A stretch of DNA of 32,311 bases from a virus (lineage: Duplodnaviria > Heunggongvirae > Uroviricota > Caudoviricetes): the IMG/VR virus record IMGVR_UViG_3300009193_000001. The stretch is one strand, 5' to 3'. The position numbers were made by a program, and so were the translations under genes. Of this stretch, positions 2,240 through 20,900 are shown in pieces. Within the stretch, counting starts at the first letter, position 1. Each line of letters begins with the position of its first letter. The notes under the pieces were generated by a model, which worked only from the letters and a program-made list of their open reading frames with translations, did no database searches and had not been told where the DNA came from.

Positions 2240-2970
2240 ATGGGAAGATGTACCATCATTGGTAGGAGAGGACCAATAACCGTACACCTTCCACGAAGGC
2301 AATCGTTCTCGATTAGCGAACCACCGTGTGGTGGAGCATGCTTTATCGTCAATATGACGGAATGTTACGAATGTTAACGTCCACTGGTAAACATACAAAC
2401 TATCGGACGAGTACTAGGTTTTTATCGTGGTCTGCTTTGCCACTATCACACTCGCGCAGGGAGCTGTTCTTATGGGTAGCTGGGTCATGGTGTGCGGATA
2501 TCGTCTACACAATTTGAGCATCAATGATAGGCTTGGTAGACATAAAATGTAAGTAGACCTCTTACAGCAGTATTCCTCCCTTACGGGGAATTGAATTCGG
2601 AACTACAGCATCACAGCTTTGTATATGACAGAGGCAATAGGCAAGTATTACAATATCATTTTGTCGCTTCTGTATGGTTTTGTGCTTGTTCCTGAAATGG
2701 TGGGAGCGTTGCAACCGTTACTGGTTTATCTGCGATTTCACACATATCGATATGTTCCGCCTCCAAGCCAAGATAATGGCTATTATAATTTGTTACGTTA
2801 AACACAGACTTTTACTGCACCGTTTATTCCATAGCTAATGGATATTCCCCTTAACGTCCGAGGTGGTGTTTACTTATATGTATTATGAACTTTGCTTAGT
2901 AGGTTGAGCACCTATCTTTAACATTCATTAGCATTTTCATACTTGAGAGTTCTCACACTCTTACACATTT
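2240..2970 (-). ncRNA. Putative large structured ncRNA (~730 nt) directly downstream of tRNA(CAT)
   Basis: No credible ORF. Nested long-range helices 2368-2377/2918-2927, 2387-2393/2867-2873, 2403-2409/2855-2861, a second nested set within 2599-2692, and many local hairpins. Two of the longest helices contain G-U wobbles only on the minus strand. Ends are approximate. Confidence 0.7.
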
Positions 2971-2974
2971 AATT

Positions 2975-3052
2975 TGGTGAACCTAGGCGGACTCGAACCG
3001 CTCCTTCCTCCTGTTATGAGCAGGGAGCATTAACCAGTTATGCTATAGGTCC
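2975..3052 (-). tRNA. tRNA with CAT anticodon, probably tRNA-Ile2 (lysidine type); elongator Met not excluded
   Basis: GGACCTA/TAGGTTC acceptor stem, A73, encoded CCA, D-arm GCAT/ATGC, loop CTCATAA, T-loop TTCGAGT. C4-G69 and C5-G68 match the E. coli TilS determinants. One mismatch in the anticodon stem and a bulge or mismatch in the T-stem. Confidence 0.88.
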
Positions 3053-3054
3053 AT

Positions 3055-3242
3055 ATATTTTTGTTTGTATATTCAGGGAGTGCAAAGTGCCGTTACATAA
3101 ACGCTACAATTCAAGTATGACTGTAACTGGTAATTCTACCGCATCTAGTCAATTATACCATTACAATATAATCCGTAGAACATCTCTTTCCCATGTTAGC
3201 ACCCGTATAGTGACTTAGTCACGAAGATACAAACAAAAATAT
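3055..3242 (-). ncRNA. Putative ~190-nt structured RNA closed by a perfect 16-bp stem
   Basis: ATATTTTTGTTTGTAT (3055-3070) is the exact reverse complement of 3227-3242; internal helices include crossing ones. Strand inferred from the neighbours. Confidence 0.6.
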
Positions 3243-3341
3243 TCCTTTACACAACATATGAAAGGGGTAAATATGACCACTATTTACAAAGGGATTTATT
3301 AAACGTTTACAAGGCATAAACGGATACCATTCTTTCGAATT

Positions 3342-3481
3342 TGGCGGACTGTATAGGATTCGAACCTTGACTGGGTTAGCATGACCCATCAGTAAACATA
3401 TTAGGGACCAGTTCCCTACTTCAGATATAAACCTTTACGTTTTCGGCTTATTCGTTATATCGTTATGTTTTATTACAGTCC
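3342..3481 (-). ncRNA. 140-nt tRNA-like RNA with CCA end and no anticodon arm
   Basis: GGACTGTA/TACAGTCC acceptor stem, G73, CCA, AGG-TTCGAAT-CCT T-arm, long variable-arm-like hairpin; the D and anticodon region is replaced by a three-helix branched domain. Confidence 0.8.
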
Positions 3482-3486
3482 ATATT

Positions 3487-3574
3487 TGGTTGAGATGGCT
3501 GGACTCGAACCAGCAAACCGTATACTCGGTGACAAACTCATTCGTCTGTTATGTTTCCGTTGCATCACATCTCT
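3487..3574 (-). tRNA. Class II tRNA-like RNA with non-canonical anticodon loop (undetermined or pseudo tRNA)
   Basis: GAGATG/CATCTC acceptor stem with A1-A72 mismatch, A73, CCA, D-arm ATG-CAACGGAAA-CAT, perfect GCTGG-TTCGAGT-CCAGC T-arm, variable arm ACCG/CGGT; anticodon loop is CGAATGAG (8 nt, no U33). Confidence 0.72.
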
Positions 3575-3743
3575 TTAAAGTGTTGGGAGTCACCGTGCAT
3601 AATGACTTTACGTGCTAACTCCTTCGTAGCACAACCTTTGTGACATTTGTTTAAACTTAGATACCCACGAAGCTCTTCCGTATCAGTATCCTCAATCGTT
3701 AAAGAGTGTCTTATCTCTTAAGCTGTCGGGCTTTATCCAACCA

Positions 3744-4286
3744 TTAGGTGAATCTCTTTATTAGCGCAGAAGAAATTATATCACATGTTTCATGTTTCGC
3801 CAACATGTACGCATATTCTTTCTTTTTATTTGCCCATGATGCATGGGCGGCATTTGCGTCATCGAATGTGCCTAAATGCACTCTATTTTTTGTTATTGGT
3901 TCTCGTATACTTGACTGGAATTTTTTACCTTTTTTCAATACGCCAACAGGTAGATTATATTTATCTGTTGGTATAATTTGTATAAAATTATTTATTTGGC
4001 TAGTTATAAACACACAAGTATTCGGTCCATATATATTATTACCAATAACCAACAAATCTTTATCTAGTTGTTTACCAATATAATCTTGGGTTATCATCCA
4101 ATTTCTAAAATTCGAAAATAATTTCCAGTCATCGCACACCTCACAATCTAAATATGTTGGGTGCATTTTATGGTACAATACAGAATAACACCTACACATC
4201 ATAGATTTCCATCTGTTATAAAATGGACATCCTCTAGTCTTGTAATCTGCGTCGTTTATTCCGACACCGTACATCATTCTAGCCAT
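3744..4286 (-). CDS. HNH-type homing endonuclease with AP2-like C-terminus
   Basis: Start moved to the ATG at 4286 behind GGAGG; GVGINDADY, WKSMMCRCY, VCDDWKLFSNF, LDKDLL, HLGTFDDANAAHASW. Confidence 0.8.
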   Translation of the reverse strand: MARMMYGVGINDADYKTRGCPFYNRWKSMMCRCYSVLYHKMHPTYLDCEVCDDWKLFSNFRNWMITQDYIGKQLDKDLLVIGNNIYGPNTCVFITSQINNFIQIIPTDKYNLPVGVLKKGKKFQSSIREPITKNRVHLGTFDDANAAHASWANKKKEYAYMLAKHETCDIISSALIKRFT

Positions 4287-4326
4287 ATATATTCCTCCGA
4301 TGGTAGGAGGTCGCGCAATCACTGCG

Positions 4327-4905
4327 TTAACCAAATTCGTTCAGATACTTGCGGTAGCTATCTCTTCTAACGTCGCCATTATTGCATGGCAAATTGTGTG
4401 ACGTCAAGAACTTTTTTTGTTTATCTACTTTGTTATTTTTCGGCTTAAGCCAATCGATAACTTTAAGTTCGATTTTTGCATATTCGAGTGTTACGCCATA
4501 TCGTTCGGTATAAGTTTTTTCTGCGTGACATTGCAGACATAATATCTGTAAGTCATCAACGGTTACATCTAAAACTGATGTGGCGTATGGTCCAATATCA
4601 GCAATCTTCAATAGCGAGTGTTCGCCTTTGATGTGGTCCGTTTGTACATCTGGTCCTTTGAAACGCTGTTTACAGCATACACACTCCCACAACCACTTAG
4701 TTCTGGTGTTTGGGTCCATGTCTGGTATACGTGTCAATTCCAGTTTAAGTAAGCGTACAGGATGCATCATCCACGTCTGTCTTATGTTTGACCGGACTAT
4801 CGTACATAATGATTTTTCTGAAGCTAGTTCACCACCGATTGTTTTAATCAGCGATTGTTTAAATTCATGTTTTTTCTCTAGGTCAGCTTTGCTAGGCTTA
4901 GCCAT
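4327..4905 (-). CDS. HNH endonuclease family protein
   Basis: 192 aa; CVCC...VQTDHI...DDLQILCLQCHAEKT; AAGGAG RBS. Confidence 0.75.
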   Translation of the reverse strand: MAKPSKADLEKKHEFKQSLIKTIGGELASEKSLCTIVRSNIRQTWMMHPVRLLKLELTRIPDMDPNTRTKWLWECVCCKQRFKGPDVQTDHIKGEHSLLKIADIGPYATSVLDVTVDDLQILCLQCHAEKTYTERYGVTLEYAKIELKVIDWLKPKNNKVDKQKKFLTSHNLPCNNGDVRRDSYRKYLNEFG

Positions 4906-5125: not shown

Positions 5126-5247
5126 TGCTCTTCCTAATAGTACGAACAATAGATTTAGGATTGATGATGAGCCGATTAATGAATGCTCTTCCTAATAGTA
5201 CGAACAATAGATTTTAGAGTGATATTTTATTGTTCGTACTATTAGGA
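5126..5247. promoter_or_regulatory. Three copies of a T7-promoter-like motif (two rightward, one leftward); candidate phage RNAP promoters or origin element
   Basis: 31-bp direct repeat at 5126-5156 and 5184-5214; its 20-bp core TCCTAATAGTACGAACAATA is inverted at 5228-5247. TAATA-N8-AATA-G has the same spacing as T7 TAATA-CGACTCAC-TATA-G. Confidence 0.6.
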
Positions 5248-17913: not shown

Positions 17914-20900
17914 TTGAATATTAATAATGTAGAATTCCACATCGATGTGGATGTGGAAGCAGAGACCAAGCTCCAACAAATGATGGAGCACGTAATAAAA
18001 CGCAATGGCGAAAAGGTAAAGTTCGTACCATCAAAATTGAATAAGTGGGCAGAGTGGGCTTGTAGTGGTCTATTTGGCGTTTCGTGGTCAGACATTGTCA
18101 TGAAGGCCGTTAAGTCTGGTTATGATGGCATGCGCACAGAAGAGCTACAACGATGTTTAATCGATGCATGTATCTCGATGGTAGAAGTCAACACCGATTA
18201 CGAGAAAGTTGCTTCACGCCTCTATTTGGCAGACCTACGTAAGCGTGTATACGGTAAATACACACCACCAAACTTTATCGAGTTCTATAATAGTATGGTA
18301 ACTCGTGGATTGTGGGAAGATATGGGATACACCACCAATGAACTTACTGATATATCAAAACATATTGACCATGACCGTGACGATAAATTCCCATATTCTG
18401 GCCTACGTCAAATGGGCGATAAATACCTGATGCGTAATAAAGTCACTGGGGAGCTATACGAGACGCCACAGTTCCTTTATATGGGTTTAGCTATGGCATC
18501 ATTCCGTGGTGAGCCTTTGATTGATTTATTGGACTTCTATGACCGTTTAAGTATGCATAAAGTTAATGTACCAACACCACCATTGGTTGGTTGCCGAACA
18601 TCAGACAAAGGTTTTGCGTCTTGTTGCTTAATATCTGGTGGCGATACCGCGGACTCCATTGAAGCCGCAGGGCATATCGTTTATCAAATGGTCAAGAACC
18701 GTTCAGGTATTGGTATCGAATTGGAAACTCGCGGACCAAATGAGCCAGTAAAAAATGGGCTTGTTCTGCATAATGGTAAAATGAATTATTACCGTATGAT
18801 TGATGCATTAACTAAGGCAAACACTCAAGAGTGTTATGATGACCAAACTGATGTATTAACGAAACGTGGATTTGTTAAGTTTTCGGAATTAGTTGATGGT
18901 GATTTGGTTGCACAAGTACACAACGACCAAACGGTAGATTTTGTTAAACCGACAAAAATGTTTTCTTATGACTATAAAGGGGATATGATATCGTTCAAAA
19001 AACGGGGCATCGATTTACTAGTAACACCGAATCACCGAATGGTTTCACGTAAAGTAAAATACGATGATGCGAGTCAACAAACATCTTTAGGTTATGATGA
19101 GTGTTCCGCTGAGTTTTGGAACCCGAAACGCACCGATTGTTTGGATTTTGGTGGGTCCGCAACTGGCAAATTGCAAACATTAAGCTGGATGCAACAGTTA
19201 CAGATTGCATATCAGGCCGATGGTTATAAAATCAAAAATAAAGATTCATATTCTTATATATTTGGTTTTAAGAAATTAAGAAAGGTTGAGCGCCTGATTG
19301 AAATATTGAGCAACCTCGACGCCTGTTACACCACCAATGTACGACCAGATGGAGTAACCGAGATACGTATTCTTGCGAGCGATATGAATATGAAAAAATC
19401 ACTATCTTGGGTGTATGATTTGGACATATCATCTGAATGGGGCGAAGAATTTATCGAAGAATTGAGGTACTGGGATGGAGACTTAAAGAAACATGGTCGT
19501 GGTGGTATCGTATATAACACCTCAGATATAACATGTGCAGATGTTGTGCAGTATGTAGCATCTTTAGTTCCAATGAAAAGTAGTGTCGGGTTATATGGTG
19601 GTGTATATAGAGTCACGTGCTTCACTGATGTTGGTTATATGACAGGGGAATCTACACGAAAATCAACCATGGATTATGATGGTGTCGTTTATTGTGTGGA
19701 AGTACCAACGAATAATTTAATTGTCCGTCGTGGTGGTTATACGACCGTATGTGGAAACTCACGTGGTGGTAGTGCCACTATGCAATTTGCATTCTTCGAC
19801 CCAGAAGTGACTACGTTATTAAAGTTGCGTAATCCAAAAACTGTTGATAAATCGCGTATCGATACAATGGATTATTCATTCGCAGTAAACAAATATTTCT
19901 GGTCACAGTATGTACAGGACGGACAAATTGCATTAATATCACCATATTATGGACCGGACACACATAAGGCATTTTACGGTAAAGATATACATGCATTTAT
20001 TGAAGCATATGAACGCGAAGTTAAGCAATGGAAAGATGCTAAAGTTATCCGATTAGAAGATGGTAGCATGGTTAGTCCAATTAAATATATCAAAGCAAAA
20101 GAATTGCTAGAAGTATTTGCAGACCAACGAAGTGATACAGCCAGAATTTATATGCATAATATCGATGAAACCAATCGACGTTCTACATATAAAGACCCTG
20201 TACGACAAAGCAACTTATGCCTTGAGATTGTAGAACCGACATCACCATATAGCCACATCACAGACCTATATTCGATTGATGGCAAAAACCCAATTTTCGG
20301 AAACGATGTAGATGGTGAATCAGCATTATGTAATTTGGGTGGTGTGGTTGTTAACCGTATCGAAAATGATGCAGATTACGAACGAACTACATATTTGCTA
20401 GTGAAGTTTATCGATAACATTATCGAAATGCAAACATACCCGTTTCCTCATATGGAATTTACATCGAAAAATCGACGTAATGTTGGTGTTGGTATTATAA
20501 ACTTAGCACATGCCATGGCAGAGCGCGGTTTAAGTTATGCTAGTCGTGCTGGTAGAAATTATATGCACCACGAAGCCGAACGTATGAGCTTTTTCTTGCA
20601 TAAAGCATCGATACGATTGGCAAAGGAAAAAGGACAATGTGATTGGTTCCATAAAACTACTTACAGTGATGGCGTATTACCAATAGATAACTTTAATAAG
20701 TTCGTTGACGAGTACGTTGATGGTACGCTACGCTACGATTGGGAAGCCTTACGTATAGATATGGCAACATACGGTATGCGTAATAGCGTATTATAAGCTT
20801 ATATGCCAAGTGAATCGTCTTCGGTTACTATAGGCTGCACCAACGGTATTGAGCCAGCACGTCAGCACATGATAGTGAAGTCTAGTAGACAGGGGGATAT

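Follow-up and report, generated by a model that had tools for sequence, protein, structure and literature searches.

Why would a phage keep a gene whose two ends form the end of a tRNA and whose middle cannot decode? The question is raised by a 140-nt element on the minus strand, at positions 3342-3481 of the window, by which we mean the whole stretch of 32,311 nucleotides of phage DNA that was analysed here. RNA position 1 of the element is window position 3481 and RNA position 140 is window position 3342, so that RNA position p corresponds to window position 3482-p. The element belongs to a marine phage with a viral contig of 97.8 kb (approximately 95% complete) that encodes a very divergent single-subunit RNA polymerase, a UvsX-like recombinase, nicotinamide phosphoribosyltransferase, ribonucleotide reductase and several HNH endonucleases. 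There is no close relative among cultured phages, the RNA polymerase being at most 29% identical to any cultured one. The 4.2 kb that contain the element are 100% identical in three other assemblies of the same phage; hence, the element is not an assembly artefact.

The element is part of an island of RNA genes which, on the RNA strand, follows the gene of the 4327-4905 protein and precedes the genes of the 1580-2167 protein and of the 515-928 HNH protein. Its downstream neighbour, tRNA-Met(CAU) (2975-3052, minus strand), is canonical and is the only standard tRNA of the phage, that is, the sole tRNA that ARAGORN reports in the whole genome. Upstream, with 5 nt between its CCA and the start of the element, lies an 88-nt class II tRNA-like gene (3487-3574, minus strand) that scores 28.7 bits on RF00005, the gathering score being 29, and that ARAGORN reports at a lowered threshold only. 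This gene ends with A73-CCA and has an A1.A72 mismatch and an anticodon loop of 8 nt, CGAAUGAG, without U33; the alternative is a 6-bp stem with a 6-nt loop. A 56-codon open reading frame at 3219-3389 has no upstream ribosome-binding site and is probably spurious. The region of the island is bracketed by two paralogous HNH genes of phrog_953 (3744-4334 and 921-1517, both on the minus strand), the former of which is missing from an 80% relative (contig L024) and therefore represents a recent insertion beside the tRNA-like genes.

Several observations bear on whether the element could be a product of chance. Its minimum free energy, as calculated with RNAfold, is -37.1 kcal/mol (z = -3.3), with one of 200 shuffled sequences folding equally well. 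When both strands of the 97.8-kb genome were scanned for a T-loop, an acceptor paired in 7 of 7 positions and NCCA at the right spacing, only the 140-nt element and tRNA-Met were retrieved. Furthermore, the motif CCAAAU terminates all three genes, namely, the 88-nt gene, the 140-nt element and tRNA-Met; in the 1.6-kb island, it occurs three times, as compared to 0.48 expected, each time at the 3' end of a tRNA or tRNA-like gene. Taken together, the result of the genome-wide scan, the shared CCAAAU ends and the fold statistics indicate that the element is real and not a chance assembly.

Anatomy of the element and the RNA families considered

The outer part of the element is that of a tRNA. The 5' acceptor strand, GGACUGUA (3474-3481, minus strand; RNA 1-8), is preceded by U at position -1 and forms 8 perfect base pairs, with pair probabilities of 0.86-1.0, with the 3' strand, UACAGUCC (RNA 129-136), which is followed by the discriminator G and an encoded CCA (RNA 137-140); strand, discriminator and CCA together occupy 3342-3353 on the minus strand (repeat family D1), and an AAUU trailer comes directly 3' of the CCA. 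The 8-bp acceptor, G73 and encoded CCA that had been claimed in an earlier, sequence-only reading of this DNA are, hence, confirmed. The T arm of that reading (3355-3367, minus strand; RNA 115-127) has the canonical loop UUCGAAU, as claimed, but its stem, AGG/CCU, comprises only three Watson-Crick pairs (pair probability 0.86-0.94) plus an A.A mismatch. Compared with phage tRNA-Ser and tRNA-Asn, the outer two pairs of the T stem are lost (CAAGG versus CCUAU): in a Ser-type T stem, the partner of the 3' strand CCUAU is AUAGG; the element has CAAGG as its 5' strand, and the first two of these bases pair into the arm that precedes the T arm. The 8 acceptor pairs, the one mismatch and the three T pairs make 12 stacked layers, the usual number in an acceptor/T minihelix.

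The preceding arm, here called arm Y (3368-3391, minus strand; RNA 91-114), consists of 8 bp with one bulged G and a 7-nt loop, UGAUGGGU-CAUGCUA-ACCCA(G)UCA (pair probability 0.66-1.0), and adjoins the T stem with zero spacer. The long extra arm of the earlier reading thus exists as an 8-bp arm, but, with its 7-nt loop and no spacer, it could be a former anticodon arm just as well as a long variable arm; the UGCUAA that it contains resembles U33-GCU-A37-A38 of tRNA-Ser(GCU).

The remainder of the element is an inserted domain (3394-3470, minus strand), in which a 7-bp stem, AAACAUA (RNA 12-18)/UAUGUUU (RNA 82-88), closes two hairpins. Both this stem (pair probability 0.77-0.93) and the hairpin UAGGGA-ACUGG-UCCCUA (RNA 64-80; 0.87-1.0) had been proposed previously and are recovered here; the hairpin is D-arm-like, with GG in its loop, and is displaced by approximately 55 nt from the normal place of a D arm. 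The other hairpin is a weak, AU-rich one formed by RNA 31-37/49-55 (0.74-0.98), which is favoured over the GATATAA/TTATATC pairing suggested earlier (0.08-0.22). The inserted sequence is AU-rich, the element has no U8, and a second copy of the inner domain was not found elsewhere in the genome.

With these parts, the element falls outside the tRNA models: RF00005 (gathering score 29 bits) gave no match to it even at E <= 10 in a search of 1.1 kb, and ARAGORN made no call for it in either default or intron mode. Of the features of a canonical tRNA, those of the ends are all present, namely, an acceptor of at least 7 bp, a discriminator followed by CCA, and a T-loop, UUCGAAU, that fits UUCRANY. 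Those of the body are not: there is no D arm after position 9, no 5-bp anticodon stem with U33 and no 5-bp T stem; the only 7-nt loop of the element, CAUGCUA, has A33 and U37 and does not make a usable anticodon loop. A simple insertion or intron was also considered and rejected, since ARAGORN at default settings called no tRNA after removal of any single segment of 30-79 nt, the control tRNA-Met being found. The absence of a canonical anticodon loop, of any RF00005 or ARAGORN match and of rescue by a single deletion supports the view, taken already in the sequence-only reading, that this is a non-decoding mimic of a tRNA.

Three further candidates were rejected. The tRNA-like domain of tmRNA resembles the element in its acceptor, T arm and CCA, in the lack of an anticodon arm and in the large insert between the acceptor strands; the element differs in that it has A3-U70, not G3.U70, no tag reading frame, an inner domain full of stops, no pseudoknots, and less than half the size, by which tmRNA is ruled out. 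The only match obtained with the Rfam tmRNA models, of 13.7 bits with E = 2.7, adjoins the element and is a chance match. Selenocysteine tRNA is distinguished by its 8/5 acceptor/T helix and 6-bp D stem, together with a long variable arm and the anticodon UCA; the element has parts like those of tRNA-Sec, namely, an 8-bp acceptor and a 6-bp hairpin, but this class is ruled out by the absence of a UCA anticodon loop, by the presence of only four helices and by the lack of a match to any tRNA-Sec model at E <= 10. Finally, an attP-like copy of the 3' end of a host tRNA is ruled out by the presence of the matching 5' acceptor strand.

Ancestry, relatives and the island of a related phage

The origin of the tRNA-like ends can be judged from a distant relative, G001, with an RNA polymerase that is 49% identical. 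In G001, a tRNA-Asn(GUU) is found at the syntenic position, the order being tRNA-Asn, a 545-nt gap, tRNA-Met, and then the homologs of the 1580-2167 protein and of the 515-928 HNH protein. The acceptor of this tRNA-Asn is GGACGGU/ACUGUCC-G-CCA and that of the element is GGACUGU/ACAGUCC-G-CCA; pair 5:68 differs on both strands, G.U in the tRNA-Asn being U-A in the element, and, over the 3' end and trailer, 26 of 32 bases are identical. In global alignments evaluated against shuffled sequences, the element scored z = 8.4, 6.2 and 5.7 with three phage tRNA-Ser(GCU) genes and z = 5.7 with the tRNA-Asn of G001. The element has in common with this tRNA-Asn and with the phage tRNA-Ser(GCU) genes (Goe8, Slicko01, Pylas) the GGAC-N-GU acceptor, G73-CCA, the T-loop and CCUAU; unlike them, it is 64 nt longer, lacks U33 as well as canonical D and anticodon arms, and is missed by the tRNA models. 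Judged by these comparisons of sequence, the 140-nt element is a descendant of a G73 tRNA. However, in a genome scan, its 3' 25-mer matched, apart from one chance site, only tRNA-Arg(ACG) of Rhodobacterales, so that the 3' end is not diagnostic of the isotype, and that of the ancestor cannot be assigned.

Homologs of the whole element were sought widely. Scans of viral contigs, metagenomes and genome contigs with exact and degenerate patterns produced none, and megablast and blastn searches against 50,697 phage records produced only tRNA-Met or generic 3' ends of tRNAs. Homologs of the RNA polymerase are at most 52% identical, save one 92% match on a 3.4-kb contig that stops before the cluster; contigs L022 and L023 (92-98% nucleotide identity) terminate within the HNH gene, and L024 terminates a few nucleotides short of the RNA cluster. 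The 90% clusters of the flanking proteins contain zero other members. The syntenic gaps of L005, L008, L013, L025 and L026 contain no tRNA-like element, and L005, L008, L025 and L026 have no tRNA whatsoever at this position.

A separate observation concerns the leader at 3579-3750 (minus strand), just 5' of the first tRNA-like gene, which comprises the motif AAGCCCGACAGC and two hairpins. The leader is conserved in L024 (1660-1881) and in L005 (8470-9015, minus strand), that is, across phages with and without tRNAs.

Modules of a comparable kind are present in another contig, L035, which encodes a homolog of the 1580-2167 protein (50% identity) and has, upstream of that gene, a gene-free island of 1.8 kb (1-1830), found also in L036-L038. 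The island of L035 contains a tRNA-Thr, a 72-nt G73-CCA module with G3.U70 and the T-loop UGGAAAU, two 117-nt tRNA-like modules (295-411 and 1441-1557) and further T-arm-like hairpins. The 117-nt modules combine perfect acceptors of 7-8 bp and canonical 5-bp T arms with unrelated, oversized bodies; the module at 1441-1557 scores 22.3 bits on RF00005. Junctions of the form CCAAATT occur four times in this island, as compared to 0.15 expected. Of the two 117-nt modules, one (module C) is without a CCA and the other (module A) has 6 extra nucleotides before its CCA, so that not all modules fit a processing model. The likeness of the 117-nt modules to the 140-nt element extends to the lineage, the gene-free island, the perfect acceptors, the canonical T-loops and the oversized non-tRNA bodies; they differ from it in that their bodies cannot be aligned with that of the element and in that their T stems are intact, with 5 bp.

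The two islands share stretches of sequence: window 2977-2785 is 78% identical to L035 708-883, window 2575-2542 is 97% identical to L035 1403-1437, and window 2440-2406 is 86% identical to L035 1585-1616. Between the 97% and the 86% flanks, L035 has a 117-nt tRNA-like module and the phage analysed here has a hairpin resembling the abiF antitoxin (2503-2540, minus strand; 33.3 bits on RF03085, the gathering score being 37, and E = 5e-4 in a search of 851 nt), which lies downstream of tRNA-Met on the same strand as the 140-nt element. This flank-bounded swap, at 2406-2575 in the window and 1403-1616 in L035, looks like a cassette exchange. As conserved flanks enclose different modules, the island acts as a framework in which RNA modules can be exchanged. 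The slot after the leader, which tRNA-Thr takes in L035, contains in the phage analysed here the 88-nt gene and the 140-nt element, followed by a 188-nt inverted-repeat domain and tRNA-Met. In the three independent long modules, namely, the 140-nt element and the two of L035, the minihelix is kept and the bodies differ, which is the pattern that selection on processing and stability would give. The variation of module C over the four contigs is too small for an analysis of covariation.

Two structures in these islands can be mentioned here in their own right. In L035, the hairpin that comes after module C (1571-1588) has a stem, CTACAAC/GTTGTAG, that is kept in comparison with L036-L038, its loop being GTTA in one contig and the reverse complement, TAAC, in the others. 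In the window, a 20-nt inverted repeat, with arms that are 95% complementary and 148 nt apart, closes the 188-nt domain at 3055-3242 (minus strand), which ends 2 nt before tRNA-Met; the wider region 3053-3341 folds at z = -1.8.

Scaffold, decaying gene or mimic

What, then, is the element? It retains the 12-layer minihelix, U-1/G+1, the T-loop, a hairpin with a GG loop, G73-CCA and an A/U-rich trailer. The 12-layer minihelix, U-1/G+1, RCCA, the T-loop and an A/U-rich trailer are the features by which bacterial RNase P, the CCA-adding enzyme and the enzymes of 3' processing recognise their substrates. Two precedents are available. [quoted passage not shown] In view of the retained processing features and of both precedents, we read the 140-nt element as a natural, non-decoding tRNA-scaffold module, to which we assign a probability of somewhat over one half, roughly 0.55.

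The resemblance to the engineered tRNA scaffold (PMC3753655) includes the acceptor, the T arm, the GG-loop hairpin and the stem-closed foreign domain, and the 140-nt RNA would be expected to receive tRNA-like processing and protection. The element differs from the engineered scaffold in being natural, in its weakened T stem and in the position of the D-like hairpin, which is located within the inserted domain and not beside the acceptor.

In the element, the D/anticodon body of a tRNA has been swapped for a stem-closed domain of two hairpins, and the following scenario can be envisaged for the scaffold module. A single leftward precursor would run from the 88-nt gene through the 140-nt element and tRNA-Met into the downstream RNA modules; RNase P would cleave it at G3481, and a 3' cut within the AAUU trailer would be followed by trimming to the encoded CCA. 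A stable small RNA of approximately 140 nt would then accumulate, with the payload, RNA 9-90, displayed on the tRNA chassis. The 140-nt RNA is, probably, excised and kept stable in the way of a tRNA; shown directly are the anatomy of its sequence, its descent from a tRNA, its genomic surroundings and the presence of similar modules in a relative, and its expression, processing and stability, as well as a function of the payload, are what we infer. Given the abiF-like neighbour, the role of a decoy is a reasonable guess for the payload.

As to its kind, such an RNA would be familiar, because non-decoding tRNA-like RNAs of phage tRNA clusters are already known; what is new is the particular variant seen in the 140-nt element. 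From T4 onward, phage tRNA clusters have been found to encode stable tRNA-like RNAs, and the anatomy of the element is unusually clean among them, with a perfect minihelix, an encoded CCA and a fully rebuilt body, in an island that consists of RNA genes only. If the element and the modules of the related phage are expressed, they would be examples of a natural scaffold, the tRNA chassis, with which phages make and protect small RNAs, and they would offer a tractable entry to the role of non-decoding phage tRNA-like RNAs. Since the lineage appears to reuse tRNA chassis modules, the significance of the element would grow if expression were shown.

The strongest competitor of the scaffold reading, possible although on balance unlikely, is a decaying pseudogene, that is, a former Asn- or Ser-type tRNA that was scrambled by insertion or rearrangement, perhaps during double-strand-break repair beside the homing-endonuclease genes, and that is now neutral DNA or a co-transcribed spacer. 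The element is unique to one phage in all collections searched, and four syntenic relatives (L005, L008, L025 and L026) lack any tRNA at its position. The broken outer pairs of the T stem, which leave it with 3 bp, the missing U8, the AU-rich insert and the defective 88-nt neighbour all fit a decaying cluster and speak against a scaffold; the lack of a usable anticodon loop likewise counts in favour of the pseudogene. Moreover, four HNH genes flank the cluster, the one at 3744-4334 being missing from L024, and homing endonucleases of phage tRNA clusters are known to cut the DNA of tRNA T arms, SegB cutting tRNA-Asn genes (PMC2330249). Were the element not expressed, the locus would be a record of tRNA-gene decay beside homing endonucleases. 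However, neutral decay does not readily account for a perfect 8-bp acceptor, a T-loop, a CCA and a shared trailer that are all intact although the body has diverged beyond recognition; nor for the two 'extra' segments that pair with each other over 7 bp (0.77-0.93) in a fold better than those of 199 of the 200 shuffles. Insertion in its simple form is excluded by the single-deletion test, and the combination of a kept minihelix with a rebuilt body recurs in the two independent 117-nt modules of L035.

A more specific proposal, which we put forward tentatively and regard as rather doubtful, is that the 140-nt element is a cassette of an RNA-only anti-defence island, in which the tRNA minihelix would be a built-in chassis for processing and stabilisation and the activity would reside in the variable body, for instance, as a decoy. 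The abiF-like hairpin hints at such an island. Support short of proof comes from the two slots described above, namely, the one between the 97% and 86% flanks and the one after the leader, whose contents differ between this phage and L035. The conserved framework of leader, trailer and CCA-AAUU may carry interchangeable RNA cassettes, and decoys may be directed, for example, at toxins or nucleases whose ligands are tRNAs or antitoxin RNAs.

Even less probable is a mimic that is charged by SerRS without decoding, as the sequence-only reading had suggested, and that would then be a decoy or a sink for tRNA-targeting defences, a synthetase, EF-Tu or the ribosome. SerRS does not read the anticodon, and its independence of the anticodon would suit an RNA of this form. 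The acceptor features of the identity set (G73, G1-C72, G2-C71 and A3-U70) are present in the sequence, an 8-bp arm lies just before the T arm, and phage tRNA-Ser genes are the closest matches in sequence. The abiF-antitoxin-like hairpin downstream on the same strand (2503-2540) is the only part of the context that favours a decoy or a ribosome ligand; defences directed at tRNA, and phage tRNA counter-measures to them, have been described (PMC11555353, PMC12851939). Against charging stands the geometry: a D arm is missing from its normal site, arm Y ends in a 7-nt loop and adjoins the T stem directly, and the T stem itself is reduced to 3 bp, so that it is doubtful whether arm Y takes the orientation needed by SerRS. 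Furthermore, the same acceptor and G73 are found in the tRNA-Asn of G001 and in the tRNA-Arg of Rhodobacterales; hence, they do not point to Ser. A decoy for an anticodon nuclease, in particular, needs an anticodon loop like that of the target, and the element has none.

The T4 species 1 RNA (rnaC, T4s001), with which the element had been linked, invites comparison. This RNA, too, is about 140 nt long (139 versus 140 nt) and lies in a tRNA cluster with a homing-endonuclease gene; its parts follow each other in the same order, with a large domain at the 5' side, a hairpin next and a canonical T arm close to the 3' end, and co-transcription with tRNAs is a further likeness, although for the 140-nt element it is only proposed. 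Yet common descent within a conserved family of phage stable RNAs is very improbable. The global alignment with rnaC yields z = 1.5, only the T-loop matching, and that with rnaD z = 2.3, neither being significant; blastn against the 50,697 phage records detects nothing past tRNA 3' ends; a clean acceptor stem and an encoded CCA are both absent from rnaC; and the hosts and phage lineages are unrelated. The link to T4 stands, therefore, as an analogy and not as homology. Least credible of all is a decoding tRNA with a removed or tolerated intron or neutral insertion: beside the tRNA-like ends, it can draw on the 139 of 15,925 variants with two simultaneous deletions that ARAGORN called class II tRNA, but the anticodons of these variants are inconsistent (Ile, Pro, Leu, His, Gln), removal of one segment of 30-79 nt never rescues a tRNA at the default threshold, the intron mode of ARAGORN comes out empty, and 140 nt is much below the size of group I or group II introns.

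Other features of the genome

Two features outside the island deserve mention. At 5132-5247, the 20-mer TCCTAATAGTACGAACAATA occurs twice in rightward and once in leftward orientation, exact 12-mers of it being present nowhere else in the genome; situated between the gene of the RNA polymerase and the leftward operon of the RNA island, this segment may be a divergent promoter or an origin region. The large subunit of ribonucleotide reductase (17914-20796, plus strand) is 960 aa long, and its N- and C-terminal halves match ribonucleotide reductase families; residues from about 300 to 615 match PhoH-like and thymidylate-synthase PHROGs instead, which suggests that the middle segment of the protein is an inserted element such as an intein.
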